Both the position numbers and the translations under genes were made by a program. A stretch of 64,000 nucleotides of DNA from Takakia lepidozioides (taxonomy: Eukaryota; Plantae; Bryophyta), in the NCBI GenBank assembly GCA_030704615.1, contig CM060732.1:65596001-65660000 (forward strand), read 5' to 3'. Below the pieces are notes generated by a model. It worked only from the letters and a program-made list of their open reading frames with translations, was not told where the DNA came from and did not search any database. Shown here piece after piece: positions 17,410 to 64,000 of the stretch. Every line of letters begins with the position of its first letter. Position 1 is the first letter of the stretch.

Positions 17410-17941
17410 ATTGCCACACACTAGTATACCACTAGTCCACCACTAGTCCAACCACTAGGCTGCCCACTATGGCAGTCACTAGTCCACCACAATGATAAGA
17501 ATGAAGCCACAAGCTCATGCGAGCTCACAAAACTGAAGCATAAACTCAGTCAAATACACCCCACGCCATGGGAATCCACACTACGGCGCCATAGCTAGAC
17601 ACGGTGAGACTCAACTCGAGAAAGATGAGCCTACCGCGCTTGCCGTGAAGTTAACCACTCCAGGGCCTAAATCTGCCTTGACCCCTGGATTGACACTTGG
17701 GCCAATCCTAAATGTCAATATATAAAAGCTAGCTATTTCCTAGCTAGTTTCACACTAGTGGTGAAATAACTTGACAGTTGTCGTGCGCATACATATCGCT
17801 ACACAACTACATCGCTGTCCAAAACCACACCACACACAAGTATACCACTAGTCAGCCACTCGTCTAGCCACTAGTCCAACCACTAGGCTGCCACTAGTCA
17901 GTCGCTAGGCTGCCCACTATGGCAGTCACTAGTCCACCACA
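17410..17941 (-). repeat. 3' LTR region of the Gypsy element (TG start at 17941 after the PPT), with a tandem partial duplicate of the LTR start at ~17413-17491
   Basis: ctaggctgcccactatggcagtcactagtccaccacaa occurs ending at 17492 and at 17942; TATA-like sequence at 17719-17727; shares blocks with 28209-28390. Confidence 0.7.
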
Positions 17942-18204
17942 ATCGCCCCCCTAGCTGGTGCTTAAGTCCCTCTAAGTCCAGGTAGCCACAAGATGAGATA
18001 GTGACAGTAGCCTCACTAAGTCCTCCACCACTATCCCTGCTACAGTCAAACTTGATAGATCAAGAGGCCGGGTGCAAGAGTTGCCCCATCGTTAGTCGTC
18101 GTCTTGCAACCTGTGAACTTGAGCCTGGGATCTTGTGTATTAACTCCTATGAGCTTGGCCTCCCATGTCTTTTTAGCTGCCTCTAGTCATGTCCACTGCC
18201 ACTA

Positions 18205-18360
18205 TCCCAAGCGGTGTAGACACAACCAATCTCCATCAGGAACCTTCTCAAGAGGTGGTGTCAAGCATCCCATGTGCCACCATCTTGAGCATCGATCATA
18301 CACCAGCATAGTGGCTGCCCCTTTGGCAGACCCACAGAGCATGCACCTCAAACATGCAGG
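18205..18360 (-). other. PHD finger at the integrase C-terminus
   Basis: CMLCGSAKGAATMLVYDRCSRWWHMGCLTPPLEKVPDGDWLCLHR fits the C4HC3 pattern with the typical W-H-x-x-C-L-x-P-P-L-x-x-x-P-x-G-x-W-x-C tail; two ligands are mutated (C->Y, C->R). Confidence 0.88.
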
Positions 18361-21300: not shown

Positions 21301-21639
21301 CCAGTGGGCTTAGAGGTAGAGGACGCGTCCAGTGGTTGCTATGTTGCAACCTCTTGAGCAGTACTCCCTACCTGCTCAATCACTGAGGCCTCATCCTGCC
21401 CCATCATCTCATCCTCGAGGACTTTCTCAACCCGAGAAAAATCCCCAACCTCATCCATCACCGCCGCCTTGGCTGCCAACTCCCTCTGAACCTCGAGCAC
21501 CTCCCACGTGTGCGATGGATGTCTGCACCCCGTGGTGCTCACCTGTGTGCCCCCACTCACTGCCTGTACCGTCTCGGTAGGCAGAGTGACCATCGAGGGA
21601 AGTGTACTCTGCACTCTGTGTTACTCAGCCATAGCCAAG

Positions 21640-22590
21640 CTGATAATCCAGGTCAAGCAATTGAGATCCATGGCTTGCCCCAACACCTGACGACGTGATG
21701 CCTCAGAAAGAGACGGCATCGCCGTGGTACCAGTGGTAAAATCCAGCGCCCGCTCACGCTCGTCAGCATTAGGCTCCACTAACTGCTACAACTGAGTATC
21801 CCACAGGAGGTCGGGTCCACTATCTCGGAAAACATGCGATCCTGGGAAGCTGAGCAGTGTAGGTAATGTTGTTCGTGGTTGACCCACCTTGTTGACCACT
21901 GCCAAATGCGAACGGTCATCGTGTCTCACACGCTGAGACTGCCTCCATATGTCCAAAATGCTATCCACTGTGAGGTGTGCTGGCCGCTGTACCCCATCAA
22001 ATGCACGCTTGAGCAGTGCGGGTGGCATCAAGTTAGTCCACCATAGTCGTGGACGATGAGCCCGTGACCCCACTGCTGCTGCATCCAACAACACTGCTGA
22101 CCCAAGCCACGACCGGACTTGATGCACACTAGCCATCACCCTTGCCCGAGAATCACCCATCAGTGGCACATTCTCCAAAATGTATGTCGGAAAATGTATG
22201 ATGAAGCTGTAAGTGGCGCAAAACCCGCACCATCTCCCAAAACAGACCCGACCTCGAGTCTCGCAATCCATTGCCATGTCTGGCTGATGAATGCATTGGC
22301 AAGGCCAACCTGCCACTACCAAGTGGATGGAGCCAACCCGCTCCAAATCTTGCACCCCCAGTAAGGAAATGTCTGCTGATAATGCCTGCTAGTATCCACA
22401 AACTGCAGACAACGGCAACAACTCAGCATACTGCTGTACCAACTAGGCAACATGGCGAAGTGAGACGCGTCGTGCAGTCTCATCCCTCTCCATATACAAG
22501 TAACGCCAAACTCGTACACCTGCCTGTAGCACAACAGCCAATCCGGTGCTGATCCCGCCAAACAAGTCCAGAAGGCAAATGCCTTCATCC
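21640..22590 (-). pseudogene. DNMT3-like C5-cytosine DNA methyltransferase catalytic domain inside pol
   Basis: Motif I LLDLFGGISTGL (~22575-22540); II YLYMERD; IV VVAGWPCQ (22313-22296); VI ILENV (22175-22167); VIII SRAHRPRLWWTNL; IX/X ERERALDF...RRQVLGQAMDLNCL (~21765-21650). Contains stops and frameshifts. Confidence 0.92.
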
Positions 22591-25500
22591 GGATACTGCC
22601 ACACACTAGGTGTGGTGTCCAATGGAGACAACTAAGGTGGTCCTGGTGCAATCCCCGCACTCTCCTCCTCTCCTGATGGTACAAAAGCCTCTACCCAAGC
22701 TTGTTGCACCCGTCGATCAGCCTCCCGCTGCAAATCCTTGCTCGTGCCCCACAATGGAGTCTGAGCAACCATGGCAGACAACTCCACCATACCATACATG
22801 TCATCCTGCTCTCATGGAGGCCGTGTGTCATCCTCTGAATGAGCGTTGCCCTCTAGCAACTCTCCAGGCCAAGTCACTGCAGCCGTGAATGCTGCCAGAG
22901 TCGACATCTTGCCTCGCTGGGCAACCACAACTCCTCCTACGAACGTCACAGGGAGCTGCACACGCCGACCTTCCCCTGACTGCCATCCAGACCTATAGGA
23001 AGCTGACTCCTCCCAAAAATCTAGGATGAAGCCCATGGGGTACAACACTGCCCCAGCAACCAAGACATCATACGAGACCGCGTCTGTCACAATGGCCTTG
23101 GCTCGCAACATTGAGCCATATGTAGGGTGATCCGGCCGTAGTTTGATAGTCAACTCACGCCGTGTCATGCCCTGAGCCTGCTCCGATCCTCCCAGAGATG
23201 TCTGTATCTGGAAAGGATAAGGCTTCATATCCGCCTCCGTGACGCCCAAGCCTGCAATAGCAGCTCTGCCCAGCATCAATGGTTGAAATCCCGAGTCCAA
23301 CAAGACTCGCTGTGCCCGGTATCTCTTGCCTGCCGGTCCACTCAAACAGAAAATGTCATCCTGGTTATCTAACATGACAACCATAGGTGTCACCATGGCG
23401 CGCTCAATGACTGACCTTGCTGGCAGCTCCGCCAACCTGACAGTTGTAGCTTGCCATGGCGCCGCCGTGGCAGTCTTGACCCTCATATCCAAGGATCCCT
23501 CTGTCACTACACCTCCCACTATCTCCGCACAAGATGAAGTAACCTCCCCACTCTCACAGAAGTGTAGCTGCCAGCCTGAACACCTCAGCTGGTCTTACCC
23601 CCGGCGTCGCAATCATGGTAGTCGAGAACAATGGAGCCTGACACACAGATGTGGCCGCCCCCAACAGCACACTAGCTGCCGTAGCCTTGGCAGTAGGTAG
23701 TGATGCTGCTCGTGTGGCTCTCCCTAATGGCACAATAATCTCCGCCTCGGTAGCAGTCGGGCGAGAACTAGGTACCATGGATGGCGTTGAAACTGTCTCC
23801 ACCAATGTGAATGATTGAGGCAGCCTAGCTTGACGGCTTGCCTCCCCACGCTGTGGATCCAACTCCACCTCCGTACCTCGTGGCTCATGAACTCGTGCTG
23901 CTCATCGAGTCACGGCTGCAGCAGACTCCACCTGCACTGGTGGTAGTGCTACTCCGCACATGAATCCCATGTCTCCCATATCTCCTCCCTCATGAATCCG
24001 GCCTTGGAGTCGGCACCACCTGAGTTGTGGCCATAGCAGCAAGCCTCTGCTCTAGCTGCTGAAGCCGGTTAGCCATGCATTGGTCAACACCTTAACCTCC
24101 ATGTCCTTGGCCATGCTGAGCTTGCCCTTGGCATGCACCTTGTGCCTGACCACCTCGTCCTCTCTGGGCTGCTCCACCTCGCCCCCGGCCACCATTGTTC
24201 CCTTGGAACTGGCCTGGGCGCAACTTAGGATGCAAACCATAACACTGGGCCTCTCCATGCCCGTGCTTGCCATAATGCCTACATTGCAACTGTGCAGGCT
24301 GTACATGTGCCGACCCTTTGCCTCCCTCTGGGCAATCCTTCTTGACATGGGGTCCTCCACATGTCCAACACACCACCTCCGCCCGTTGTTGGCCTGCAAA
24401 TGAAGGGAGAGACACCTGCATCTGAGGTCCTCTCTGTCCTTCCCTGGGCTTCACCTGAGCCCCCTTGTTGCCTTGAGCATGTTGAGGTAGTGGTTGGCTA
24501 GGAGCACCACTACCCCGTGGTGTCTCCTTAGCAAATCCCACCATGACCACTCGTTCCTCCACCATGTTGAGCTCTATCCGCTCTGCCAGCAAAAACACAT
24601 TTGCTAAGGTGGGTTGGGCCGCTTGTAGGAGAGTTTCATCCCGCACCATTCTCCTCAGCTCCTTGTCCAATATCCCATACATTGGACTACTTGAGCTTCC
24701 GCAACCCCTTGGGTTACATTTATCAAGCGCCTCATGCGAGTGAAAGCCTCCCTCAAGCTCTCAGTCGGCTTCTGTTGGAACTCTTGCAAGCTCCGCAACT
24801 TCTCTGTCATCACCCCTTGGTAGTTCTCTCTCAACTCTTCGAAGAATTCCACAACAGGGTTGACGGCAGGCACGGGTACTAGTGCTGGTGCGGCACTGGC
24901 TTGGGTGGACATTGTAGCTACGGTACCACTTGTCCCCCTAGTCCCACTAGTCCCACTGCTGCTTGTTGAAGCTGCCGGTGCAGCTACAGGTGTAGCCACT
25001 GCCCTCGTGGCTCAAGTGCCCCTAATGATAGAGACATAGTCGGGTGACCAATACATCATTCACTCCTCGATCTCAACCTCATGCCCCCGCCTGAACTCAT
25101 GGTAATCATCCATGGGCGGCCCCTCAAGATGCTGAAACAACCCTTCCATGCCATGAAAGACGTAAATAGTTGTGGATTGTGCATTTGCTGCAAATCACAC
25201 CAACTATCAAACTCTTGGATAAAATCGTCCAGTTCAATGGTGCCCACTACTCCAGAGTACCTACATGCCCCCTTGGTAGCTCCATACATCTCCTCCATTG
25301 TGTCCCACAACAATGGTAAGGAAACAACTTGCACCGCTGGTGTGAGTCATCTTGATTCACAATCCGAATCAGAACCTTCCGTAGAAGACACAGGAGGTGA
25401 AGGTGGCCTAAACCACACACTTCGTCTCGTGTACCCACTACTATCGTTAGTGCTCGAACCGGCACTCTCCCTAGCAACTAGTGGCACCTCCGTGTTGACA

Positions 25501-37700: not shown

Positions 37701-40700
37701 GCAAGAGTTGGTGGGATGGATATGCACGCATGAAACCTGGTGATTACTCTATGGAATGAAATCTTGGAGAGCTTAGATGGTGTATGCCTGATGTTGAGGA
37801 ACCCCTCCTTGAGCTTGTTATTCTTTTCTAGTTTGTCCAGAGGAGATCGAATTGATATGTCAGGGCTGGCAGCCTGCAGAGGGACTTCCCTGAACATCCT
37901 GTCCTGCGGCAAATATTGCAGTCTCAGAAGGAGGCAAACCAGCAAAGGATCTCTGATGCTGGAGAGGATATTCCGTTCCGCAGGTTACCGCTGCCTGGGC
38001 CAGGTATGGGCCTTCTAGTTACACATCTACCTAAAAAATAATTTTCAACTGTAATGCCTGTGTTTAATGGTGGACACAGTCCTACCTTGTCTAATAGTGC
38101 ATTTTTGGGGACCAACAGAATGTTCTCTTGTGACAGAAATGGGTGCAAGAGAGCTCTGGGTGAGGCTTGTGTAGTAGCATGTCAATCATATTTTCCTGTT
38201 GTATTCCCTTCAACGTTTTACAGTCTGGCACAGAAGTGCTTTTTGAAAGTAGTGCAACTTGACTGGTTTGTATTTTACAATGATGTATTGACGTAAGACA
38301 AGCCTGTAAACAAGGATGAACCTGTCAGAACCTGTTGTGTTACGATTTCTCCCTTGACTGTTTTGGCAATATCATGGGTAAATTTTCCCATTACATCCGG
38401 AACTGTAACACAAATTGTATAAACATGGTCAACATGCCCATATTAATGAGGACTTTATACCATAAGTCACATCCACAGTCTGGAACTGATGGAGTGAGTG
38501 GTGATTCGTATCTAGCTAGTCACTGCTATGCATGATGAGTGGCCGTCATAAGGGTTAAGACTGTGCTCTTTTATTTGACTCTTTTGTCAAATGTTAAGGC
38601 TGGATATGTGTCAGATCTCTCTCTCTCTCCCTGCAACCTGGCTGTTGACCTTTGCGTGCGGTCAAGTGCCTCTATGAGCACCTTGATGGCAGTGGCGGGA
38701 AAATAAGTTTATATCTGCAGCTGAGGTAAGGGGATAAGCTAAACCCAAATCCATGGATGGATTTGAAGAGGGCGTCTCTCTGGTGAGAGTAGCCAGGTCA
38801 AAGAATTAGAAAGTGAATATTGTCTTCAGGTTGCCCACACAACGGGCATTGCAATCCCCCTTTCCTCTCTGCATCTGTTTGCTGTTCAAAGGTAGGCGTC
38901 CTGCCTGGGGTATAAATTTTAGTCTGATGAGAGTGGGTAAACCTTTGAGGTCATCCATGATGGCCTACCCCATGTCACGGAATGGTAACAAGTTCAGGAA
39001 AGTTCTCTGCCTACCTTCATTTTCATCGGACAATTTCCTGGCAACAGACATGGCTGGACACTTCAGCCTCTAAATCAGATTATCCAGCAGGGTCAAGACT
39101 TGCGGACTTAACATTCATATCCTTGAAAATCTCTTCTACCCTCTTCCGCCAGGACTTAGCCTATTTGACAGGGTGATCCTGCTTCCAAGATATAGAATGT
39201 ATTCATTCATAAGACGTTGTTTGCTTCCAAGATATAGGGTCAATAAACTTAGGATATCTGATATTAGTTGTACGTTGCAGCTAAACCACCATCTGACCTT
39301 GAATTCATCTCGTCGGGAGCTTAAGGGAGGGATGCCAAACTCACCCCGAACAGCCACATTAGCTGTTTTGGAGCCTGCTGACATGCACTCCTTGAGCACC
39401 CCAGTTGAATGGATTCTAGAGACTTCGCCTGTTTGGAGTTATCAACCCACACTGGAGATGCATACTCCAAGGCAGGCCTAATAACACGGCAAAGCACGGT
39501 TTTTTGTACTTCAGAGTTGATCCCTCTGCAGTGGAAAATTTTAGTGAGACACAACGCTTTGGGCTTGCCAGATGGAACAACTTTTTGAAATATGTGCATC
39601 CCAATTACAGTTGGAGGTGAACTCAACACCAAGGTATGTGTAGGGAGGACAGGAATCTCTTGGCTTCCCACTGCCACTTGAGATCGCCTCCTCCCTCCCC
39701 TCGGTCGTTGAATGCCGCCATTGCACATTTACTGATGTTAGCCTCTAGCCCCTGAAGGTCAAAGTATCGCTTTGCGCAATCAATCAACTCCGAAGATGGA
39801 TGGAGTCTCCCCTATGCCTGCGAAGTCATCCGCAAACATAAGGGCTGGTACCTCTGTTTACCAACTTTGAAAAGCTTGAGGCTGAGCAAAAGCCCAGGCC
39901 CTTTTGGCGCCTAGTCATTGGGCAAATCACACACAGCAGATTGATGCTTGTATAAAGGATTTCTAGTGGATATATGGAAAACTTGGATCAATTGTCTGTT
40001 CCAAGGCAAGTCATACTACCGGTGTCAGCCCCTGACAAAGGTAGTTTCTGTCCCTTTGTGTTCCGCTCAAACTGGGAGCGGGGTCAATGGCCACAAGGCT
40101 ACGGCAAACGTCTTATAAGTACATTCTAATTATCTATGGCCACAAGGCTATGGCTTCGTCTGTGGTCTTCTGGGGTCAGGGGAAAGATGTGGAGGATAGT
40201 TCACACAACCTATATGAAACACCAAAAGTTGTGGTATGGTCAGTGGCCAGAAGTCTAATTTCCAACTGTTTATACCAAGGTAAGTCCCACTACGGGCTTG
40301 AGCCCCTCACAAATTTCTGTTCCCTCTTGTTCCAAACTGGGCACTTGGTCTATGGCCACAAGGCTATGGTAAACAACGTCTCATGCGCACATTCTCTAAT
40401 ACGCTTATTCACCGTTATGACAGCAGATGGGAGACTTCATGGAGACATAAGTGGTGGTGCCACTATACAAGATGAATGGGAAGCCACCATAGAGGCAAAA
40501 CGAGATAGACAACCATCTGACCCTTGGGAGGAGCTAGGGCACTTGCTGAAGGGAGACAAGGCTTCTGGCCAGCAGGGGAATGCACGGCGGGCAGCCAGAG
40601 GACCTGTTGGAGATAGCCGCTGGGATGTCTCCGAAGGGAAGGATAAAAATGAGGTGTGACTTGCAATGTGGTTTTCTTGCTGGGATGGTATTTTGGTATC

Positions 40701-41480
40701 AACTTGTTTGGGATTAAAATTGATTAGGGTTGTATCCGTCTGCTCATTGTGTTGTAGAACCTCTCTAGGAGCAACTGCCGATTTAGCTCTGCATGGCATA
40801 TACAGGTAATTTGATAGTGCAGGGAACTTTGTGAACGTAAGCTTAAGAGTCCATTTTCCAGACCATCAAGTCATTCATGTTGTGTGACCACGGTGTGATG
40901 AGGTATGGAGAGGTGCAGAGAGGCATGTGTGGCATTTAGATATATGACTGAGAGGTTTGTCTATTGCTCTCTTTTCAGAGCCATGAGGACACAGACATGC
41001 TAGTGAACCCCTTCGATTTGAGTGTCTGGAGTCAAGACGCACAAGACAACACAGATGGGGGTCCTGAAAGGGCAGAGGTGGGAGGGAAGGAGAGACGGCG
41101 TAGCCGGATGACTGCAAAGGAGAGACATGAACACAACAGAAGGCAGTACGTGCAACGAGAAGACCAACAGCAGCAAGGAGATTGATTTGCTGAAGGAAAC
41201 TAGGCCTGGTTGGTAAGCCTTTGTAAATATCTGAGGAAACTCTGTTTATTAATAGTTGCTAGGTGGGATTCCACCAGCCCTTCATGGAAAGTAATGTTGT
41301 AACATGGAATCACCCAGTCAGGTATGGCCTTGGGTTCACAGTTGGCTCCATTAGGTGTTTGTCCCTCTTTCTTGCTACCAAAAGCCTACAAAGTGCTCTT
41401 GCGTTTGGTTTCCAGCCACAGAAGAAATTACGACGCAGATGCACAAGGATCTGCCAGCAACTGCAATGAGCCCACAAGTT
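34799..41480 (+). CDS. Putative multi-exon host gene of unknown function (structure incomplete)
   Basis: Telo-box AAACCCTAA at 34681; ATG exon 34799-34879 (MEEQEPNWGGRTWPPLAQLALRMRVTK|GT); further AG/GT-bounded open segments at ~40424-40653 and from ~40979 (SHEDTDMLVNPFDLS...RRRSRMTAKERHEHNRRQ). No recognisable domain. Confidence 0.35.
38640..39856 (-). mobile_element. 5'-truncated LINE (non-LTR retrotransposon) RT and 3' region, degenerate
   Basis: EVPALMFADDFAG (~39856-39815), YTYLGVEF, RPALEYASPVW, AVRGEFGIPPLSSRRD, and CPLCGQPEDNIHF zinc knuckle near 38850. Confidence 0.85.
39849..40395 (+). mobile_element. Two short 3'-end fragments of the same LINE family
   Basis: 39849-40130 and ~40255-40395 match 41741-42027 (ggatcaattgtctgttccaagg...ggccacaaggcta). 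Confidence 0.8.
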
Positions 41481-41554
41481 ATGTACATTTGAAGATCCTG
41501 ACTAACTCCCTCTCTCTCCCTTCCTCTCCTCAAGGGTCTACCCACTCATGGCAC

Positions 41555-42027
41555 TAGACTGAAATTTAAACTCAGGGTGGGAAGCCTACCTTTGAACAGC
41601 AAACAGAAGCAGAGGGGAAAGGGAGAGTGCAATTGCCTGTTGTGTGGACAACCTGAACACAATATTTATTTTCTGATTCATTGTCCGGGGTTCTCTCACC
41701 AGAGAGACGCTCTCTTCAAATCTATCAAGGAAATTGTTCCTGTACCTCTGTTTACCAACTTTGAAAGTCTCGAGGCTGAGCCAAAAGCCCAGGCCCTTTT
41801 TGGGCCTAGTTATTGGGCAAACCACACACAACAGATTGATGCTTGTGTAAAGAGATTTCTAGAGGATATCTGGAGAACTTGGATCAATTGTCTGTTCCAA
41901 GGTAAGTCTTACTACCGACTGTCAGCCCCTGACAAAGGTGTTTCTGTCCCTTTGTATTCCGCTCAAAGTGGGCGTGGGGTCAGTGGCCGCAAGGCTACGG
42001 CAAACAACATCTTATGAGGACATTCTC
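41555..42027 (+). mobile_element. LINE 3'-end fragment with Cys/His knuckle
   Basis: CNCLLCGQPEHNIYFLIHCPGFSHQRD...FLEDIWRTW; its 3' end gcaaacaacatcttatgag is shared with 43280-43368 (-). Confidence 0.8.
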
Positions 42028-43279
42028 TCCCTTCCTCTCCTGTGAGGAGCAAAGGTTGAGATCTTGCAGGAGGATTTAAGGGTGCTGAGCTGCAGGACCA
42101 AAAGTATACACGGAGAAATTTCCCAAATCTAAAGAGTGATGAGAACAGACTTTACTAGCTTGAGGTTTACACGTTCTTCTGCAATTAGCACTACCCGGTT
42201 GTTTAGCAATGAAATCGAAAGTTGATGAGGATGACTTTTCTTAGGGCATTCTATACTGGTATGAAACAAATGAGGAGCTGGAGGGGCCTGTTGGGTATTT
42301 AGTGCTTTAGCATGGTAACGACAAAAGATGGACCACGAATTGAGTGATTAGTGACAAAGACCTGGACAAGGCTCCCTTGAAACTGCATTCCTTGTAGATG
42401 CTGCTCACACCATGGACAACAGCCAGTAACCACACATACCTTTGTACTAATAATTTGGTAACAGTGGTCCATCATTTTGATGTACATGTAGGTCTAGGCA
42501 ATACTGTTGGCACTCACCTGGTTGTAGTGTTTTTGGGAATGGAGTGTTGATCACATCAGTAACATGCACACACCATGGCTGAGGGTGAGGAGCAGTGTTG
42601 GGCAGGTATATATTTCACCCGGGTTTACCAGGCGGGTATCAATCATAATATCTATAACCATTTGTTGTCTAGGTTTTGCAGGGTGCTCTTTTCTGAGCTC
42701 TCGCAAGGTGTTGTCAACAGATCATTTGGTGAACTATCGGATTCAGGACCTGCTATTTGCTGTGTGTTGAGTGTCAGTTTTGGTTAAGGAACAAGGAGTA
42801 ATTTGTCTGGTAACTCCTCATACAGATTCACAGCCCTTGTGCAGCTTAATTTTCATGTCAGTTATGTCCATGGAAATCAACAGTCTTGCTACCTCACATT
42901 ATTGAGATGCTTGCGAATTGATGGAATTTGACGTTTTTGGTTCTCTTTGTTTATCTTTCCCAACACTATACACAGTTTTACTCCAGCTGCAGGAGGAGGT
43001 GTATGGCTGGACAAGGTTGCAGATTGTTTCGTTCAGGCACTTGCATGTCTGCTTGCAAATTTCAACGTGCCTGTGCACGCAGCTTCTTATGTTTTGATGT
43101 GCTCTTGAGGTTGGATAAGAACATTACGGTGTTCCCAAAGGAAAAAAGATTGACACCTGATTGATATATTTAGTGTACATAACCGCCCAGCACCCTCAAA
43201 CACCTAACCTCCCAACACCACCATCTCCAACATGCACACCACGAACCTTCTGATTTCAGCCCCTGGAATGTGTGAGAAT

Positions 43280-43368
43280 GTACTCATAAGATGTTGTTTG
43301 TCGTAGCCTTGTGGCCATTGACCCAGCGCCCAGTTTGAACGGAACACAAAGGGGCAGAAACTACCTTT
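43280..43368 (-). mobile_element. LINE 3'-end fragment running into the gap
   Basis: Reverse complement matches ~41935-42027. Confidence 0.75.
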
Positions 43369-48139: not shown

Positions 48140-48820
48140 TAGACTAGAAGATGCAGATGACCTGGTGCATGCAAGGGGTTGGACAAGCGACCGCCTCATG
48201 GACTTCTGGGTTTCTTGCAAAACACTTACCCTCCCTACCACTGTACGCAGTAAAGTGCGATTTCTAGATAGTTTCACTTGGATTTGTCTTCGGGACCATT
48301 GCAGTGCATATGGGACAACAGTTGAGTCCATACAGACTTGTATGGACAGACGATTCCCTACTCTGAATTGTGTTGGTGTGGAAGCGCTCATTGTCCCTGT
48401 TACTTCTGAGTGAGTTTTCTGCACACCCTGCCCCTTTGTCTCGCTTCCATACGCATTTTGCATGTGGAATCGTGTGTTTCGTGGATATGACGATGCTGAA
48501 AGTCTGCATGTATTGTGCAGCAACCACTGGAGTGTCGTAATAATGAAACCCATGCGCCACCTTCACTTGAATAGCATTAAAAACATGCACAAACATAAGA
48601 GGTTGAAGCCACTGTTTGCTAGATTATGGGCTATGGTAAGAGGATTCTACCCTCCAGACCCAAGGTGGGTGGAGGCCACCGATCCTATGCGATGGGTGTG
48701 CCCCCCAGTTCCCCAGCAATCCTCCACATGGGAATGTGGCCTCTTTACAACTCATTACATTGACTTGTACCTTGACCAATGCTTCGTGAACCATGTGTCG
48801 GGTGGTGCAAGTCCGGTAAG
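48140..48820 (+). pseudogene. Ulp1/C48-like SUMO-protease fragment, typical DNA-transposon cargo
   Basis: GWTSDRLMDFW...RFLDSF...LIVPVTS|DNHWSVVIM (GT-AG intron 48410-48520)...HLNS...VPQQSSTWECGLF. His and Cys are retained; the triad Asp reads Asn. Confidence 0.8.
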
Positions 48821-48899
48821 CACTCAGTCGAACCTCCATGGTTTGAATCGCATTCCTCTTGGCAATTGTGCACGGGTGCCGTTTATGTCCTTCCACATT

Positions 48900-53700: not shown

Positions 53701-55333
53701 CTTTAGGGTTTTAGTGGTGATCATACCTACAAAGTGGATGTTGTAGAGTAGAAACAAGTAAGATTTGCTGGTCAGTATTACAGCATAGGAATGAGGGTTC
53801 AGGTTACCAAGAATCAAGGCCTGGCATATGCATGATCAAAGTAGTGGAATGCATGGTAGATCTCTTGCAAACTGTTGGGTGCTTCTGCATTGCATATAGC
53901 TACATAAGTGACACTGTCATTTCATGTTAGTTGTTAGACTGAGAGGGATCTGTTTCTGGAACTCTATTAATTGGGAGTTGAATACAAACTAAGGTTTTTG
54001 TTTTGTAGAATGCATATAGTTAAGGGGCTTGTATTTACTGACTAACAAACTAATTGCTTCTGCAAGCAATCAGAATGAAGAGGGTCTCTGCGTGGAAAGA
54101 GAGACAGACTAATGAAGGATGAAGGGAGGGTCACTTGCGAGTTAAAGGAAAAACCATGAGAGGCAGTGTACTACCTGTACCTGCACATGGTGGTAGATCC
54201 ATGTTGCATCCTCACATCCCAATGCTTTCATTCTAGAGGAAGTTCAGCATGTACTGCTTTTAAATGTAACCACTTATAGGCTGTGTATTCACCCTGATAG
54301 TGAACTGTTTGTGACACTGAAATCATAACAGCAGTCTTATTGGTGTATGCAAACCGGACTTGGATGTACTAAGTCATAAAAGGGAGAAACTTCCCAGTCC
54401 CATCCATGTCTTCTCTTCCGTTGCGGTGTGGATGAGGGCATCTGGTCTCTGATCATGAACAGGGTAGAGGCACTCATTAGGGGTTCAAGTCTTAGGGTAG
54501 CAAGCGTATCTTTCACTAAGAACTAGATAGAATTAAATAGAAGGGGATTTATGCCCCTTTCTTTTCACACTACATAGGCAGACTGAAAGAGGCTCTACAA
54601 CCTTTAAACCAAAGAGCATTTCAGCATATTCAGATATGTATGTCTGTCTCTTGCTTAAGTGCATCAAAATGAAGGGTCTGGAAGCTGGAAAGCAGGTGCA
54701 CACTCACATTATCCAAATTGGATTCACGCCAAGTGTTTTTCTCCTCAACACCCTTGTGAACATGTATGTTAAGTGCAAGAGCATAATGAATGCACACCGA
54801 GTGTTCAACGTAATGCCTCAACGAACTTTGATCACGTTGAATACAATGTTGGCAGGATTTAACATGGGTGTGGTAGGAATGCTTTGGAGACCTGTGAGCA
54901 AATGTTGCGCGAAGGGCCGGTGAAGCCCAACCACATCACCTTTGTTGGTGTTTGCAATGCGTGTGCAAGCCTGGGAGCCCTGGAAAAGGGGAAAGAGGTC
55001 CATGCTGACATCGTCAAAGCTGGAATTGTACCAGATGTCATCCTGATCTGACAGGTTTGCCAAATGTGGGTGCATTCAGGATGCGAAGGGAGTATTTCAC
55101 ATTCTGGCTGAACGAGATCTGGTGTCGTGGAACGCGATGCTTGCAGGGTATGCACAGCAAGGGCACGGGATGGAGGCTTTGGAGTCCTATGAGAAAATGA
55201 TGTGGGAAGGGTGAAGCCCGACCACATCAGGTTTGTGTGCGTTTGCAGTGCGTGTGCAAGCCTGGCAGCCCTTGAAAAGGGCAAAGAGGTGCATGGTCGC
55301 ATTGCCAAAGCTGGAATTGTACCAGATGTGATT
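50800..55333 (+). pseudogene. PPR-pseudogene mosaic including a ~370-bp tandem duplication of an L-L'-S-P block and an N-terminal PPR copy
   Basis: ORFs 51953-52261 and 52300-52683 are near-identical; HVKMLCEAG|RLKEAL...YVCLLLKCIKMKGLEAGKQVHTHIIQ...MYVKC. Confidence 0.88.
52852..54574. mobile_element. Solo-LTR-like insertion (1723 bp)
   Basis: Perfect 12-bp terminal inverted repeat TGTAGTGTGAAA (52852-52863) / TTTCACACTACA (54563-54574); TG...CA ends; 4-bp TSD CAGG/TAGG; an empty site is seen in the paralogue at ~62790; no long ORF. Confidence 0.8.
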
Positions 55334-55569
55334 GGGGGTTGCTATTCCATGAGCTCATGAGCGGGCATGGCTCATCCATGAGCCGCAAAATAACACACTT
55401 CGAATTTCGGCAGATTTTTTTTGGGCCCAAAACTATAAAATAATCGAAAATCGAAGATTTCCGCGCTCATGCTGGAAGCACTCCGCTCATGAGTACCAGT
55501 GTACGCTCATGACTTGGAGCCCAGGCTCATGGACCGCCAGGCCAGGTCATAGAAAAACTGAATTCTGGG

Positions 55570-56045
55570 CAATAACGGCACCGAAATTATCCCAGAGGCA
55601 GAGACGCAAGTGGAATTAGGATCCGGGTTTGCAGACTCCGAAAACGCAATGGCGACCTATAACCGTGGATAGTACTGTTGCAGAAGTGCAGGATGGTTGG
55701 GTATAACGGCGCCGTAATTGGGCACAGGAAAAGAAATAGCCGGCTGAAGGCTCGGGAGTGAAGCCAACAATGGTGAAAGTAATTGGGCTCCACCAACCAA
55801 ATACCCGGCTGCATCCTCCGGAGTGCAGGCGATAACGGCGCCGAAATGGGCCCCGAAAACCAAATACTCGGCTGAAGCCACCGGAGTGCAGCCGATAACG
55901 GCGCTGAAATTGGGTCCGGAAACCAAATACCCGGCTGAAGGCTGGGGATTGCAACCAATAACGGCGCCGAAATTGACCTGCGGAAACAAAATTCTCGGCT
56001 GAAGCTTCCGCACTCCATCCAATAACGGCACCGAAATTGGGCTCT
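55570..56045. repeat. Subterminal ~63-bp tandem repeat containing ATAACGGCGCCGAAAT
   Basis: Units at ~55572, 55703, 55832, 55895, 55958 and 56022; related motifs near the right end (62152, 62284, 62350, 62416). Confidence 0.85.
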
Positions 56046-56159
56046 GGAGAGCAAATACCCGCCTTACGGTAAGGGAGGCCTTGCTCTCATTTTGCTCTTC
56101 ACTCTTCTCTGTTGTGCCCATCTCCTCCCTGCTTTGAGTTTGTGCTGTGTCGTGAGGCC

Positions 56160-56711
56160 ATGTCGTGCCCGAATCACATCTATCGACGCCAGACGGGAGT
56201 CATTTTCCCGAAAGCAGACGACATCATTGTTTTCCTGGATGTTTACAGGGACGATCCTCGACTTGTCCAGCTGAGAGCAATGGAGTTTCTTCCAGGATTG
56301 CACGATTCTCCTGGACCCCGGCTGGGGAGCAGGTGGTTCCTACGCATCATGGACCTGGACTTTCTACATGAGTGGGAGCCAAACAGATCACGCACAGCGT
56401 TGCTATATCGCTGGAATTGTTGCGAGTGGACGTATGATGAGTGCATAGGTGAAAACTTTACGCGTGGACGGACTGGCTCAGAAAGTGGGGACATTCTCTT
56501 CAATTATGAGGATGAGGAGGAGGGGAACACAGGGCCCACTGTGAAAATGTCCTTATACCAAGGGGGCGCTATCGATAAACACGACATCCTCGTTAGTTTC
56601 AACCGGGCGACAGAAACCACTGACATTTTGTTCAAATATAGGCACCCGGTCACTCAGGAGGTCCTTGAGAGGCCAGTTAGAGTTCCTTCTTCTTGGGCGA
56701 GGGGACCATAG
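56160..56711 (+). CDS. Uninterrupted 183-aa ORF of unknown function inside the MULE
   Basis: ATG at 56160 to TAG at 56711, with globular-looking composition; no recognised motif. Confidence 0.4.
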   Translation: MSCPNHIYRRQTGVIFPKADDIIVFLDVYRDDPRLVQLRAMEFLPGLHDSPGPRLGSRWFLRIMDLDFLHEWEPNRSRTALLYRWNCCEWTYDECIGENFTRGRTGSESGDILFNYEDEEEGNTGPTVKMSLYQGGAIDKHDILVSFNRATETTDILFKYRHPVTQEVLERPVRVPSSWARGP

Positions 56712-57394
56712 GTCTTGCATGCTAGAGTAGACATGTTTCGACTCGCCGACACTCAGGGCACATACATTTTCATTCAGAAATCAAGCAGCTTCCCTGTGCC
56801 ATATGGGGAATATACATGCTTGGATAATCTTCTGTTAAGGTTTTTTGCAATTCACTGCCAGTATGCTGGGACGTGTCCTTTGTCGTATGGATTGCTGTTT
56901 GCACAAGGTGCAGTATGCAAATGCTGGAATGTGCAGTAGGACCCTTCCCACTGGGACACAGAACTAGCAATCTTGTAAAGGCATCACATTTGCAGAACAG
57001 TAACAATGTATTTGTAGCAAATTGGAGTCTTCTCATAAAGGTGGACGAAAACGCCAGGATGGGCTGCGAAATCACTACAAATTGAATGAAGAGCAGTAAC
57101 AAGGAAGCACTATGCAGTACACAGACCATAAACGGCGCTGAAATAGGCCTCAATGCCCGTTAATCTCCACACAATGTATGCTTTACTCGGATCCATTTGT
57201 AGACAACCAAAATAAAAAAAGCATGCGCATGCCATTCATGGCCAAAAACCACATTCTCATGTATTGCGGCACCGAAATTCACATGTAGCCATGGCGATGC
57301 GGCACCACCAAGTGTATAATTCCTCACAAAAAAATAGGGTGCAAGAAGATGAATGTAATATAATTGCCACTTTCTCCTTCCCGAATGTGGAATG

Positions 57395-57990
57395 TCAAGC
57401 AGTCCGACCAGTATCCTGCCGTAGGGCCTTGTGCAGCTCGTTGAAACTCAGTGTTGGAGCATGGATGAAGACGTCCACTGCGGATATGCAACTCATGCGC
57501 TTCAGAAAAATGTAATAAAGGTGTTTGTAGGGGACGTATGCTGCATTCTTCGATTCCATAACAAGGAAGTCCTCATAGTTGCAAGCTGGATACTGTGAAA
57601 CCGTGATTGTATACACGACACTGCGCGCAGCAGACCCGGCTGTTGACAACTGAAATATGCGCCCCATCCCGGAGTGAGGAACATCCCTGCAACCTTGCAC
57701 TATGCAGGGCATTGCAAGAGCGTTGGCCATCCTGGTGTCGTTCGCCTTTGTTGGTGGCCGCCGTCTTTTCAGTTTCCCCCACCGATGGGTGGGCCAAGCT
57801 GCGGGGTCACCCACCGGTATGCGGGGCGAAGAGCTTCTCGTGGGAGGAGGATGACGACTGGGAATTGGATTTCGTGGAACGTATTTTTGCTTTCAAAGAA
57901 TCAGGATGGAAGTACACGTTTACCCAAATACGGGAGTCCATGTTGAAGACGGGACCTCTCGGTACGCTCCGCAGCGAAGTCCTGCAGTGA
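57395..57990 (-). pseudogene. C-terminal SWIM exon of a MULE transposase (DDE core absent)
   Basis: DPAAWPTHRWGKLKRRRPPT...GMGRIF...YTITVSQYPACNYEDF...PYKHLYYIFLKRM...FIHAPTLSFNE aligns with 16350-16774; two SWIM Cys read Tyr. Confidence 0.85.
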
Positions 57991-58189
57991 GAAGAGTGTG
58001 TCTTACCTAATAACACAAATGATTTTATGGAGGATTCCGTATCCAACAGGATGGGTGATTAGTGCACGTAAAGATGAAGGTGTGTAACGTACGTTACAAA
58101 AACGGACGACAACAACAAGTTCACATCGGATATTTGGTGCCTGAATTGTAATGTACAACCACTTGGGCTACAATAAATCAGGCCTTCCC

Positions 58190-59770
58190 ATAAATTTCGG
58201 CACCGAAATCTGGATGAACATCTCTGTCATGTAACAACTTTGGAAGCCAGGGGATGAATTCCGGCGACAGAAATCGTAATTTGTTCACCTCATGAAACTG
58301 ACCAAGCACCCAAAGGATGGATTTTGGTGCCGAAATTCGGATGAACATCTTCTTCATCAAATTGTTTCTGCACATGAGGGTTGAATTTGGATGCCAAAAT
58401 ATAGATGAATGTGTTCCTGATTACAGTCGTGATTCACCACGTGTCCGGATATCGGTGCCGACATCCGAATGACAGTAATTCTGAATCGGCAGAATGGATG
58501 TATTTCGGCGCCGAAATTCATCTGAAGTCTTTTTTTTCTTTTTTTTTCTTTTTTTTTTTTCTTTGCGACAAATGAACTTCGGCGCCGAATCTCATCCAAG
58601 TACTCCCTTCTAATTTTCCTTTTTCTTCGCGAGCAATGAATTTCGGCGCCGAAATTCATCCGAAGTCCTCCCGAATTTTTATTTTTTCTTCGCGAGCATT
58701 GAATTTTGGCGCCAAAATTCATCCGAAGTCCTCCCGAAATATATATTTTTCTTCGCGAGCAATAAATTTCGGCGCCGAAATTCATCCGAAGTCCTCCCGA
58801 ATTTTATTTTTTTCTTCCCGAGCAATGAATTTCGGCGCCGAAATTCAACCGACTTCATCCATCCAAATTCTTTTCAGGGTTTGAGCGCCGGATTTCGGCG
58901 CCGAAATTCATCCTTACTGTCCGCAATGAGTAACTCTAATATTACATTTTCAATGCGACGGATAAATTTCGGCGCCGAAATTCGTCCAAACCCGACACTT
59001 ACTTTTTGCTTCTGGATGATATAATTTTCCGGAAATCGTTGGAAATACCCCGTTCCGATGAAGATAACAGGAATATTCTGCATTTAATGGATAAATCGGC
59101 ATATTGAACCCCTTCTGTCAAAATTAATTGCATTTTAGCCGTTTTTTTCATTTGAAACCGACAGTATCTATTAAGTGGTCTTTTTCGCACGGGACGTTGC
59201 CGCACATAAAGTATAATTTCGGCGCCGAAATTATAGTTAATTGTCCAGAAATGGCAAGTCCAACAGGCATGGACAGATCCGTCAGGGGCAATGATGGCGG
59301 CGAAGCATAGCATGGTGCCGATTTAGTCTTCGCTCTGGATGAATTTCGGCGCCGAAATATGGATGATTTCACCTCGTCTGCGCGCGGACGGAGATATTCG
59401 TAATGAATTTCGGCGCCGAAATATGGATGAAATGTGCCCAAGTGCAGCCGTTTCCACTGTCCCGGAATTAATTCCGGCTCCAATATCCCACTGACAGGTT
59501 TGCTCATGACGGATGAGGACTTGGGAAGCGATGAATTGCGGCGCCGAAATTCGTAAGTTTGTGTATGAAAGCACTTGAATATGATGAATTTCGGCGCCGA
59601 AATTCATCCGTCCGCTGATGAAACGTACCGACCTGACTGTTGAATGTCATAGGCAGGGGATTTTCATGGCGGTTGGGTTTCATGATGTGCGGATATTTCA
59701 TTCAATGCCGGCTGCTCCGGGAACAGCATCCGGTGAACGGAAGGTATTTTGGTGCCGCAATTCGGATAAA
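58190..59770. repeat. Array of palindromic repeats (consensus GATGAATTTCGGCGCCGAAATTCATC) with ~63-bp period and mostly non-identical spacers
   Basis: About 20 copies, e.g. at ~58191, 58254, 58318, 58381, 58447, 58498, 58572, 58636, 58699, 58762, 58825, 58889, 58960, 59212, 59338, 59403, 59531, 59583; perfect 26-bp palindrome at 59583-59608. Confidence 0.9.
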
Positions 59771-60699
59771 CCGTCTTGTATTGGTGGCTGGAACTGGCAC
59801 GCGACTTCATCCGTGCGAACGTGTCAAGGGTCACAATCTCTTCATCACCCATACGGCAGAAAGTGGTGGACGGTGGCAACGCTTCGGGAGACGTGGCTGC
59901 TTACGCATCTGCTCGTGCATAGTGGTTGCATGTTCCACCGCTTCGCTCTCTCGCTCCTTGCCCTTCTGCAGTGACATTCTCCTGCGTGTCCTCTCCTTAT
60001 GCGGCATAGTGGTAGCATAGAGTTTGTGGAAGGTCAGGCGACTCCGACAAAGAGAAGGAGGACGTGGGATTTTGGGAAGCCGCCGACGACACGACTTAAG
60101 CTCCGTCTCATACATGAAATGCAGACCTCGTTATCCGGAGACTCGGATCGCCCACCAGTGAGAGATTCGTGCTTTGCGGATGTGAAGCACTCCATACGCA
60201 ATATTCCTTTTACACCTTTTTTTTTGCGTGCAGTGTCTCATGTTTTCCTGTTTGTTTGACATGGGAGCTAGGGAGGGATCGCACGGGGGCGAGGCAACAC
60301 AGTGAACATATGATACTCCTGCCCGGGTGCTGCGCTCGCAAGATGGAAGTGCATCGAGGCAGGCGAGTCCTCATTCAACACCTCAGATATCGCCTCAGAA
60401 AAGCCCACCTAGAGTTCGGAAGCCGAGGAAGCAGAAGGAGCCCATGGCTTCGCCAGTAAAACCCCTAGGGAGACTGGAAGCGGAGATATTGGGTTTGCAG
60501 TCAATTTCAGAAAACACGGATGCGGTGGAGGCCGCTGGAGATGTGGGAGTTGGATCTGCAGAAGTGCGGCCCATTGAGCTGACAGAAGGAGAGAACGACA
60601 ACATGGTACGACTTGGCGACGATCAGAACCTGCTGGAGCTTGCGGAGGAGCAAAACCTCCAGGACATTTCCTTCTCTGCAGACTCTTATCTACCGCTGT

Positions 60700-61790
60700 T
60701 ACTCTGAGAAGCCCTCCCCTCAAAAATACCATCCTCACCAGCCGGAACTGTCCACCTGGGTGCGGAAGTGTCCTCAACATTCCCCTCGCTCTCGGACGCG
60801 GATTCTATTACGAACTTCCCTACTCTGCCTTTCACAATTCTATGTTTGGCCTCACGCCTCATTATAATTCTCTGCTCATTCTCGTATGTCAATTGCTCTA
60901 ACCGAGTAGGCCTATCCTCCCTCCTGATGGCTTCTCTGGCAGCCGTGTCTGCATAGGCTAGTAGAAAAAAAGGCTTCTGGGGACTAGCGAGAAACGATTT
61001 TCTGGCAAAGAATGGCCGATGCGATTCTCTCCTCCTCTGCAACAGGGTCCGATTCGGGCAAGTCTCCCAGCTTCTCCTCGTCGGACGACTCTGCAAGGCT
61101 GAGTGTACGCACAAACATAGAATGAAGTACATTAGAGAATTCAAACAGGGAATCATCGGCAGGTTGCATGGTCCCTACAACCGAAACCAATACACTTACT
61201 ATGGTGCAACTCACTCGAAGACAAGCATTGGGGGAAGCGGCTTCGGGCGCCCCTGCATCGAACGAATTTCCTGGACTTCCTCCTCTTCATCTTTCTCCTC
61301 CCCTTCCACGTCATCTTCTGCGTTTTTGGGATCCTCAGTCGGAGGCAGACGCTGAAGGCCTGCCAAATTGTAATCGTACAAGGCCGTATCCCCCTCAAAT
61401 GAGAACACAAATCGGTTCGACATCCTTCCCGCCCACATACAGGCACCTGCGAATTCATACAACACAACCACAGCCAAACTCAAGAATGAGTCGCTTCCTC
61501 GCACAAGCAAACATATACAAACGGAAATGGTGTCAATTTCGGTGCCGCATTCAATTAACGTTCTCACCTGTATTTGCAGTGACGTCGAGGACCCTGCCTT
61601 CAACATCCGTACACGTTTCCATGAGCGTCTGGATGAATGCAGGACTCCTGGTCTTGCCATACCTCCATGGCTTGCCCGACAAATCACAAAGAATGTCCTT
61701 CTCTCCCACATGGTTGAACAGGACGTTATACTCCAGTGGATCAACTGTGGAATCAACAAGTCTTCCTGCTTCACGTAATTTGAATTTCGA
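60700..61790 (-). pseudogene. C-terminal half of the same beta-class amino-methyltransferase-like gene
   Basis: NVLFNH...KPWRYGKTRSPAFIQTLMETCTDVEGRVLDVTANTG | intron 61567-61447 | ACMWAGRMSNRFVFSFEGDTALY + acidic tail; same intron position and phase as the 4530-4437 intron. Confidence 0.75.
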
Positions 61791-62596
61791 ATGTTCCTTC
61801 ACGAAGCAAAATGCAGCAGTGCAGGTTCGGAGGCAGGTGGAAGGCAGCCATCCTTGCATGAGGCCGGGGATGCATCGGACAGTGATAGCGGATCCTCACC
61901 ATAGCAAAGTCTCATTTGGATCCTTTTGTTGTACAGTTCTGAAACACTTGATGAAAATATTGACGATTTGAAAAATCATTGTGTTCAGAATGCTTGTCCG
62001 ATTCCCTACATTTCTTCCGCCAACCAAAATGTATAATAAAAGCAGAAGAGACGCAAACTTCAATGAAGAACCCTACAAGTAATTTATGCACACCATCGAG
62101 CCGAGAACTTGAAGCCATGAAAACCCTGCCGTTTCTAACATTCATATTGGGAAATTTGGCGCCGAAATAGCCCAGTGCGCGCCTTCGTTATATGGGCCTC
62201 AAAAATTCCACAGATGAATTACTGTACCAAAATATCGCGATGGAAGCCTTCAGCACAAGGCACTTCAGCACATTCCACTTGGGTATTTCGGCGCCCAAAT
62301 AGCCCGTTCTGCGCCATTAAATACCACACTATATCACATTTTAAGAGGTAATTTCGGTGCCGAAATACCTCGGTGGATGTCTTCAAAACACCATTTTAGT
62401 ACACTGCTCTTGGGAATAACGGCGCCGAAATACCTCATTCCGCATCCTGGACCAGGAGAAACAGACCCTATTACCGAGGTAAGAGGACATAACACCGTCA
62501 ATAAAGGCAGGAAAATTCCAATTCCGCGGATGCCCGCTGATGAGCTCATAGGCTCATAGGCTCATGGGCTCATGCGCTCATGAAATAGTAAACCTC

Positions 62597-64000
62597 GATG
62601 TGATTCCCTGTGGATCAATAGCTACAAGAAACCTGCATGGGTAGATGGTCAACTAAAGGCTGTATCTGCAGGGGCACAGTTGATAAAACCAGGCACCTCA
62701 ACCATGACCACAGCTTCTGAAAGAGGATCAAGAGAGGGAGTCCACAATGCCTCTTCTGGCTGCACTTTTGGGCAGGTGAAGATGCTTTGCAGCAGGCAGA
62801 CTGTCAGAGGCTCTACAGACTTTAGACCAATGAGGCATTTTAGCAGATTCAAGACCTACATATGTCTGTCTCTTGCTTAAGTGCATCAAGAAGGAAGGTC
62901 TGGAAGCTGGAAAGCAGGTGCACACTCAAAATATCCAAAAGTGGATTCACGCCAAATGTTTTTCTACTCAACACCTTAAGTGCGGGAGCATCATGGATGC
63001 TCACCAAGTGTTTAACAGAATGCCTCAACGATCTTTGATCACGTGAAATATAATATTGGCAGGATTTACCAAGCATGAGTTTGGTAGGATTGCTTTGGAG
63101 ACCCACGCGATGCTTGCAGGGTATGCACAGCAGGACATAGTATGAAGGCTTTGGAGACCTATGATCGAATGATGGGGGAAGGGTGAAGCCCACTGACCAC
63201 ATCACGTTTGTGTGCATTTGCAATGATTCTGCAAGCCTGGCAGCCCTGGAAAAGGGCAAAGAGGTCCATGGTGACATTTTCAGAGCTGGATTGTACCCGA
63301 TGTCATTCTGAACAATACCCTGGTGGATATGTATGCAAAATATGGGTGCATCGAGGATGCAAAGGGAGTGTTTGACAGTATGGCTGAACAAGATATGGTG
63401 TCATGTAATGCCATGCTTGCAGGAGATGCAAAGAAGGGGTGCGGGATGGCCTTGGAGACCTATGATGGGGGCAGGGGTGAAGTGTAACCAGATCACGTTT
63501 GTGTGTGTTTGCAATGCTAGCCTGGCAGCCCTGGAAAATGGCAAAGAGATCCATAGTGACATCATCAAATCTGGAATTGCACCTGATGTCATTCTGAACA
63601 CTGCCCTGGTGGACATGTATGCCCAATGTGGGTGCATTGAGGATGCAAATGGAGTGTTCGACAGTATGGCTGAACGACATGTGGTGTTGTGGAGTGTGAT
63701 GATTGCAAGGTATGCACAGCAAGGGCGCGGGATGGAGGCTTTGGAGACCTAGGGGAAAATGACGAGGAGAAGCTGTGGAATGAATACTTTTCTAACCCAG
63801 TCAATGATGGGACCATCGAGGCAAGAAGGTGAACGCCTGTTGGATTATAGAGAGTAGCAGATGCAATTGAGCATAGGAACTAGTGTGATAAGTAGGGTTG
63901 GGGTGTTTGCTGGAACAATTCTAGGTTGTCATTGTCAGCTGCTAGCAGCAAGGCAAGGATGTATGCATGATTTGTGCAGAGGCATGGATAGTTGAAGGAG
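62597..64000 (+). pseudogene. PPR-pseudogene mosaic (N-terminus, PLS repeats, upstream module), continuing off-window
   Basis: GVHNASSG...VKMLC, ITFVCVCNASLAALENGKEIHSDIIKSGIAPDVILNTALVDMYAQCGCIEDA; frameshifts. Confidence 0.88.

Follow-up and report, generated by a model that had tools for sequence, protein, structure and literature searches.

A deleted and partly inverted copy of a Mutator-type element family with a methyltransferase-like accessory gene in Takakia lepidozioides

Within a 64,000-nt stretch of the Takakia lepidozioides genome (assembly GCA_030704615.1, contig CM060732.1, positions 65,596,001 to 65,660,000; hereafter 'the window', with coordinates counted from its first letter) lies a 7,263-bp unit that is bounded by the ends of a Mutator-like element (MULE) and holds parts of two genes: the C-terminal SWIM part of a MULE-type transposase, and exons of a methyltransferase (MTase)-like gene. 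Contigs of other copies show that the unit belongs to a multi-copy family, that the MTase-like exons belong to that family, and that the window copy has undergone a deletion at 60666/60667 plus a 1.1-kb inversion. The order in the family is left terminal inverted repeat (TIR), transposase on the minus strand, a field of palindromes, an accessory gene on the plus strand from about 60444, and right TIR. We favour, with moderate confidence, the view that the window holds a deleted, partly inverted copy of a Mutator-type family with a head-to-head, intron-containing accessory gene, whose product would have a beta-class MTase fold, is likely a ParB fusion, and would likely bind the element's own palindromes and keep the element active as a binding or shielding factor.

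The mobile unit, its family and the losses in the window copy

The boundaries of the unit, its gene parts and the segments that bear on its history are:

55334-62596: whole unit, 7,263 bp, Mutator-type element copy
55325-55333 (+): left target-site duplication (TSD) GATGTGATT, 9 bp, perfect
62597-62605 (+): right TSD GATGTGATT; its final five bases, TGATT, also open another register of a pentatricopeptide repeat (PPR)
55334-55362 (+): left TIR, 29 bp, 24 of 29 positions matching the right TIR; a contig of run X7 ends at 55334
62568-62596 (-): right TIR, 29 bp, lying within an 8-bp GCTCATGG tandem array (62536-62582); contigs of X5, X6 and X11 end at 62596
55349-55530, and also at the right end: sub-terminal GCTCAT/ATGAGC repeats, candidate transposase-binding sites
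57046-57272: 227-bp segment lost in some copies and kept in others, with 5-bp microhomology; joint 57045/57273 in X1, X5 and X7, while X7 record 27 spans it without a gap
57395-57881 (-): remnant of a MULE-type transposase, its C-terminal SWIM part; the window copy has Tyr in place of two Cys, and family contigs keep the Cys codon at 57528
57881/57882: likely deletion junction for the loss of the DDE core, judged from contig ends (X5 record 12 ends at 57882; X7 record 28 has 32 letters unlike the window past 57881)
60444-60666 (+): acidic stretch of 74 aa with which the coding part of the accessory gene likely begins, as its first exon; its frame appears to stay open through the 30 letters seen of the missing sequence
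60667-60691 (+): 3' end of an intron that other copies have just before their MTase C-terminal exon; the loose end behind 61814, once reverse-complemented, is nearly the same sequence
60690-61814 (-): 1.1-kb block inverted in the window copy relative to family contigs, from contig joints
61211-61446 (-): MTase-like exon, GACMWAGRMSNRFVFSFEGD..., then an acidic tail
61447-61567 (-): predicted GT..AG intron, its position conserved in homologues
61568-61814 (-): MTase-like exon, PWRYGKTRSPAF...DVTANTG (motif X/I region)

A scan of the window for an 8-11-bp TSD with a 20-bp TIR (at most 5 mismatches) returned the ends of this unit as the sole pair, and in 10 base shuffles of the window the same scan never returned a TIR pair with a 9-bp TSD. 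Family evidence consists of contigs of the public runs X1, X5, X6, X7 and X11 placed on the unit, the contig tables comprising the matches listed. Independent contigs stop exactly at 55334 (X7) and at 62596 (X5, X6, X11) and then run into different flanks, so that the ends proposed by an earlier note on this DNA, a perfect 9-bp TSD and 29-bp TIRs around the SWIM remnant and the MTase exons, are borne out. The same note had called TIRs this short atypical, which does not hold against the passage of PMC6446971 on MULE criteria, where TSDs measure 8-11 bp and TIRs 14-500 bp; with its perfect 9-bp TSD, 29-bp TIRs and SWIM part the unit files as a non-autonomous MULE derivative.

Both flanks consist of degenerate PPR repeats. 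The TSD 9-mer recurs at 31989 inside an uninterrupted PPR paralogue, and from the shared TGATT onward the right flank is a different part of the repeat rather than a continuation of the left flank, a switch of register that fits an adjacent deletion after insertion. No empty-site joint occurs among the contig joints listed. Degenerate PPR repeats are present four times in the window (7.7-10.7, 29.4-33.1, 50.8-55.3 and 62.6-64 kb), with a summed contig depth several- to forty-fold that of the element; possibly this 'host gene' flank is itself a high-copy repeat, and it may be borne by a transposable element.

In runs X1 and X5 contigs tile the unit completely (all 30 bins). Of the eight X5 contigs listed inside the unit, seven, from its sub-terminal, SWIM and MTase parts, have depths of 44-64, and the eighth is a divergent relative at 5.6; contig depth is not copy number, and we count this agreement as weak support. 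Contigs also join the MTase-like exons to the right sub-terminal segment. It is the tiling of the whole unit, together with contigs that share its exact TIR ends but lie in different flanks, that establishes a multi-copy family including the MTase exons, and that sustains the earlier claim that these exons lie inside the mobile unit. The window copy differs by about 1-2% from the X5 contigs. At 27 of 56 variable places in X1 the window has T/A and the family C/G, and at 10 the reverse, an excess expected for the decay of a methylated copy.

The rearrangement of the window copy can be read from the contig joints. In all four runs that bear on it (X1, X5, X6 and X7), position 60690 is linked to 61816 with a change of strand, the shorter arm of the joint measuring up to 255 letters; one 883-base X5 contig spans the joint with 338 and 541 bases on either side. 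Past 61814 the family sequence runs into an intron acceptor, whose counterpart in the window is 60667-60691, and behind 60666 other copies hold at least 255 (X5) and at least 160 (X6) letters that are absent from the window. Among the contigs listed, none bridges the window's own junctions, which leaves some room for a mis-assembly, but the stranded intron end speaks for a real event. Several X6 contigs match part of the last MTase exon (61183-61434) and continue into at least 255 letters of other sequence, suggesting related families or chimeras that share this exon.

These joints bear directly on gene order. The earlier note had read the two genes as co-oriented, and had concluded from this that their association spans distinct subfamilies. 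Both pieces do lie on the minus strand in the window copy, but only there is 60690-61814 inverted; the opposite-strand joints show the family to be divergent, like the gene pair at 4-17 kb of the window, and the co-orientation results from an inversion and a deletion private to this copy. Distinct subfamilies do exist, yet on the basis of sequence (30-43% protein identity). One could alternatively suppose a separate subfamily in which transposase and MTase gene are natively co-oriented and which is mobilised in trans as it stands, as the window sequence alone, with both pieces on one strand inside intact ends, would allow; we give this next to no probability, given that four of four runs join the opposite way, that an intron end is stranded at 60667-60691 (+), and that the window junctions are unbridged among the contigs listed.

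As for the 4-17 kb pair, a second, divergent MTase-like gene (4246-7077, minus strand; motif IV DIPD, then a stop) stands head-to-head with a frameshifted MULE-type transposase (13270-16771, plus strand), with PPR repeats (7.7-11 kb) between them. The earlier description of this first element as divergent is right for the orientation of the two genes, but no TIR/TSD pair enclosing both was found in the window scan. The SWIM remnant of our unit (57398-57892, minus strand) aligns with the C-terminus of that transposase (16298-16762; 43% over 155 aa, E = 8e-30), whose SWIM in turn matches Pfam PF04434 at E = 0.0013 and 18.7 bits, slightly under the 19.6 cut-off. The C-x-C...C-x-H pattern of the remnant aligns at 43% to that SWIM and is degenerate in the window copy; the remnant itself has no Pfam match, and neither has any other open reading frame (ORF) of the unit. 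Relatives of the remnant (the 13.3-16.8 kb transposase and that of contig C80 in assembly G001) carry the motifs FDH, MADS, CLFH and NLAET, putative marks of a MULE-type DDE transposase; the Pfam Transposase_mut match is weak (E = 0.033).

With an intact relative as tblastn query only the last ~145 aa of the transposase were found inside the unit, and with full-length relatives neither the DDE core nor the motif-IV exon was found there, in agreement with the earlier note. Nothing like the N-terminus of the intact transposase was recognised in the segment 57882-58058. From where contigs end at 57881/57882, a further deletion may be suspected, one that removed the DDE core. Where the earlier note left a choice between mobilisation in trans and later deletion, the balance leans to the latter, since at 60666 the sequence of other copies is longer by at least 255 bases; most likely the pieces were lost after insertion rather than before. 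We thus envisage an element that would have inserted whole and later lost its DDE core and most of its accessory gene, perhaps through breaks repaired at 1-5-bp microhomologies.

Fragments of this kind could also make the unit a Pack-MULE, a non-autonomous element with captured host-gene fragments that have no function for the element. The window copy indeed holds fragments only, and MULEs often capture host fragments according to a passage of PMC6446971. We nevertheless think this very unlikely: what is left of the gene derives by deletion from the longer cargo of other copies, and the homologues described below form near-identical multi-contig clusters, are flanked by arrays and are under purifying selection.

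The accessory gene and its homologues

The two MTase-like exons of the unit share about 30% identity with the gene at 4.2-7.1 kb. A profile built from them found 66 relatives among 1.84 billion representatives; 12 of the 66 match PF01555 weakly and under the cut-off (best E = 8e-6). Relatives are also encoded at 50 metagenome loci and on two contigs of a metagenome-assembled genome (MAG), 52 loci in all. Homologues form near-identical multi-contig clusters (P0014 with 12 members, P0064 with 20 contigs, P0020 with 17), and the MTase-like loci are flanked by tandem arrays. At three loci (L041, L042, L044) a ~2.2-kb MTase-like gene has tandem arrays in inverted orientation close on both sides, with no ParB exon or transposase; possibly these are elements whose sole gene is the MTase-like one.

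The spliced homologue P0017 aligns with both MTase-like genes of the window, and an AlphaFold model of its residues 310-562 (23-row alignment; predicted local distance difference test score, pLDDT, 82) matched CcrM with Z 19.8 and a root-mean-square deviation of 3.5 over 219 aligned positions. M.BceJIV (Z 19.0), M.MboIIA and a rotifer N4CMT (both 18.4) and M.PvuII (17.7) followed, with MT-A70 proteins at about 12. According to this model the homologue has the permuted beta-class amino-MTase fold, in which motif IV precedes motif I.

The catalytic motifs are unusual. Motif IV is readable in 34 of 52 loci, many of the 52 being near-duplicates; in 31 it reads D-x-P-E and in none is the fourth residue aromatic. 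The spliced homologues P0017, P0080 and P0081 have DLPE or DVPE and the window's other copy DIPD, so that the canonical (D/N/S)PP(Y/F/W) is found at none of the 34 loci and in none of the three spliced homologues; in the window copy this exon is absent. Motif I, F-x-G-x-G, is degenerate as well (DCTAATG, DVTANTG, DWQCGVG): the D and the last G are kept, while the F and first G are usually replaced. The exons carrying motifs IV and I are under purifying selection. Of 39 exon pairs, 14 were saturated; among the 25 for which a ratio of nonsynonymous to synonymous substitution rates (dN/dS) could be computed, 23 had values of 0.03-0.16 and two, both of close relatives, 0.34-0.36. This indicates that the odd motif IV is maintained rather than decaying.

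The aromatic residue of (D/N/S)PP(Y/F/W) stacks the flipped base. Since the relatives lack it, the accessory protein is likely no ordinary writer of N4-methylcytosine (4mC) or N6-methyladenine (6mA), and the gene, to judge from its relatives' motif IV, does not class as an active PF01555 enzyme.

The suggestion of a ParB fusion comes from other loci. In 4 of 52 homologous loci an upstream exon with the motif DGNHR, putatively ParB-like, precedes the MTase-like part; the window copy is without such an exon. By extension, the accessory protein of the window's element family was likely fused to an N-terminal ParB-like domain.

Word-index protein searches with the two window exons and tblastn against phages gave no match, none of 140 stretches was confirmed in a first metagenome scan, and an Rfam search was likewise negative. 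In viral-contig scans the sole candidate (L001) was spurious, and two prokaryotic-genome loci (L054, L055) proved to be short chance matches. A bacterial donor was also considered for L052 and L053, in a cyanobacterial MAG (G001), and rejected: spliceosomal-type introns and an adjoining plant-type transposase contig led us to read them as eukaryotic contamination. Together with L064, these are intron-containing plant-type transposon contigs that might be taken wrongly for a bacterial donor. The runs showed no spliced junction, and X11 (RNA by our guess) is without coverage of the MTase exons.

Palindrome sites and possible function

The element contains 26 sites of a 16-bp palindrome of the ATTTCGGCGCCGAAAT type, ten of them perfect, while the other 57 kb of the window contain none. 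Groups of them lie at:

55572-56061 (+): left 63-bp array with 6 variant sites (ATAACGGCGCCGAAAT type)
58194-59603: central non-coding field with 14 sites, 10 of them perfect ATTTCGGCGCCGAAAT, mostly at multiples of ~63 bp
62153-62431: right sub-terminal sites, 4 in number

A 14-mer search with at most one mismatch gave 14 matches, against 0 in 200 shuffles, though sites within arrays are not independent. None of the 26 falls in the coding 24% of the element, and their spacings cluster at 63-66 bp and multiples, or about six helical turns. Repeated palindromes of different sequence occur in eight related MTase loci, and the gene at 4246-7077 has a repeated palindrome-like motif of its own at 6268-6653.

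We hypothesize that an intact accessory protein would recognise its own element through the 16-bp palindromes and, once bound, might help it to escape silencing, by analogy with VANC and with the part proposed for the Ectocarpus ParB-MTase and the Bostrychia PAG genes (see below); probably it would bind or shield the element and not serve as a conventional 4mC/6mA writer. Given that the aromatic is missing, binding seems more probable than ordinary 4mC/6mA catalysis.

Several observations weigh against this interpretation. The modelled fold is that of a homologue with about 30% identity to the window exon, not that of the window protein. The DGNHR exons have DndB as their best match, weakly (E 0.05-0.12), and Pfam, PDB-sequence, NCBIfam and PHROG searches lent no support to a ParB identity; at four loci (L017, L028, L033, L042) repeats stand upstream in place of the ParB exon. 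A transposase piece was found at 0 of 52 related loci, all of them at most 5.7 kb long with the gene filling most of that length, and although G001 contains both an intact transposase contig and two MTase contigs, these have no end sequence in common. No full-length family copy was seen in the contigs. The motif IV catalytic Asp is kept and the SAM (S-adenosylmethionine)-binding segment partly so, leaving catalysis possible. Finally, the palindrome cores have changed mostly by CpG transition (9 of 10 changes), so that the sites were likely methylated at some time.

Some of these points feed a rival explanation, in which the accessory protein is an active amino-MTase with a non-canonical D-x-P-E site that places 4mC or 6mA within or beside the palindromes as a self-mark. 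The beta-class fold is whole in the homologue model, all 34 readable loci keep the motif IV Asp, and the exons carrying motifs IV and I are under purifying selection. The palindrome, moreover, holds GGCGCC and three CpGs, and CpG observed/expected is 0.82 in the element (sites masked) against 0.26-0.42 in the PPR flanks. A high CpG content, however, fits a young element too, the core CpGs have decayed by transition, F-x-G-x-G is degenerate, and no locus of the 34 has the aromatic that would stack the flipped base. We hold active methylation to be possible but doubtful.

The palindromes might instead be binding sites of the transposase, the MTase-like gene having a separate role in chromatin, RNA or the transpososome. 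Arrays do lie near both ends, and according to 10.64898/2026.08.24.746577 a MULE transposase can activate cognate copies in a sequence-specific way. But most of the perfect sites lie in the middle of the element, 2-4 kb from either end and between the starts of the two genes, GCTCAT repeats are present at the ends as a separate motif, and elsewhere palindrome arrays adjoin MTase-like genes and were not found in the transposase contig of G001. This alternative seems to us unlikely.

It is tempting to speculate further that land-plant Mutators carry a self-contained, bacteria-like ParB/parS system, in which a ParB-MTase would load at helically phased 16-bp palindromes specific to its family, spread over the element, and write a mark other than 5-methylcytosine (5mC), be it 4mC, 6mA or another adduct, through a rewired D-x-P-E site, thereby shielding the element from silencing. 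We consider this elaborate version unlikely.

Returning to the binding or shielding factor that we favour, the window copy itself is dead, and its worth is that a TSD and TIRs tie an MTase-like gene to a mobile unit and name a candidate site. A conserved land-plant Mutator version with a 16-bp candidate site and a conserved, non-canonical active-site motif lets one ask whether a transposon writes or reads its own DNA mark; if so, such elements might also give rise to 4mC/6mA signals in seed-free plants.

Known systems and other features of the window

The nearest parallel in layout is Sola1-1_Ec32 of Ectocarpus, a DNA transposon in which, according to a passage of PMC12477816, a transcribed gene that runs opposite to the transposase gene codes for a ParB-like and an N4C/N6A MTase domain; its product is proposed to bind and modify its own element. 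Our family, in the layout given by contig joints, shares the accessory MTase gene on the strand opposite the transposase; compared by description, the Ectocarpus element is a Sola of a brown alga, whereas the present one is a SWIM-bearing Mutator-type element of a land plant with a 9-bp TSD and D-x-P-E. Among red algae, PAG2 and PAG3 of Bostrychia Plavaka elements, with homologues in giant Mutator elements of Chondrus crispus, comprise PF01555-type methylase cargo and a ParB-like protein beside tandem inverted-repeat arrays (passages of 10.1101/2025.02.11.637652). They share with our family a PF01555-type methylase as cargo of DNA transposons, Mutators among them; they differ, by description, in forming two genes, a methylase-SET and a ParB-2OG oxygenase, and those passages mention no loss of the catalytic motif. 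Amino-methylase cargo in DNA transposons is thus known from brown and red algae, red-algal Mutators included, and a land-plant Mutator with a D-x-P-E motif IV would be a new setting. No description of amino-MTase cargo in land-plant transposons was found in a literature search whose scope did not extend to Iyer et al. 2011, Repbase, or the Ectocarpus and bioRxiv supplements.

The functional analogy is with VANDAL elements of Arabidopsis, MULEs with short or degenerate TIRs whose accessory protein VANC targets tandem family-specific motifs in non-coding parts (PMC5735166, in part). Both are Mutator elements with an accessory gene and repeated family-specific non-coding motifs, targeting being putative in our case. 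VANC, which likely derives from MAIN-like proteins (a passage of PMC13547354), induces 5mC loss, whereas the cargo here has a prokaryote-type MTase fold, as far as sequence and model tell; this fold differs from that of VANC-type proteins, and no ORF of the unit gave a Pfam match to one.

Prokaryotic-type beta-class (permuted) folds are found in other eukaryotes: excerpts of 10.1101/2021.02.12.428880 and PMC8885841, respectively, describe Marchantia MpDN4MT1, with TSPPY, and bdelloid N4CMT as active N4C MTases of the host, the latter being among our top fold matches (Z 18.4). These are active host genes, unlike the transposon cargo with D-x-P-E described here. DIRS and LTR retrotransposons carry DAM (10.64898/2026.05.21.726589, in part), and passages of PMC4738411 call DIRS MTase copies likely inactive; these too are transposons that have co-opted prokaryote-like amino-MTases, but they are retrotransposons with a different MTase group. 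A term search of the accessible text of 10.64898/2026.05.21.726589 returned no mention of Mutator, MULE, moss, bryophyte or 4mC.

The unit also contains one further ORF:

56160-56711 (+): ORF of 183 aa, convergent with the transposase 3' end and covered by family contigs in all four runs

It has no match in Pfam, NCBIfam or PHROGs, nor in G001 when used as a query, and is possibly a third gene of the element. Elsewhere in the window a broken Gypsy-type retrotransposon occupies 17400-25500 (minus strand), with a PHD finger (PF00628, E = 5e-8) after the integrase and a putative C5 DNA-methyltransferase-like segment at 21789-22388, judged by its motifs, that has no Pfam match. Inverted and direct repeats of 64-290 bp lie at 38746-43368 beside a 500-N gap. 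A fragment of an Ulp1/C48 protease, a typical cargo of MULE or CACTA elements, is found at 48414-48899 on the plus strand (PF02902, E = 1e-5).

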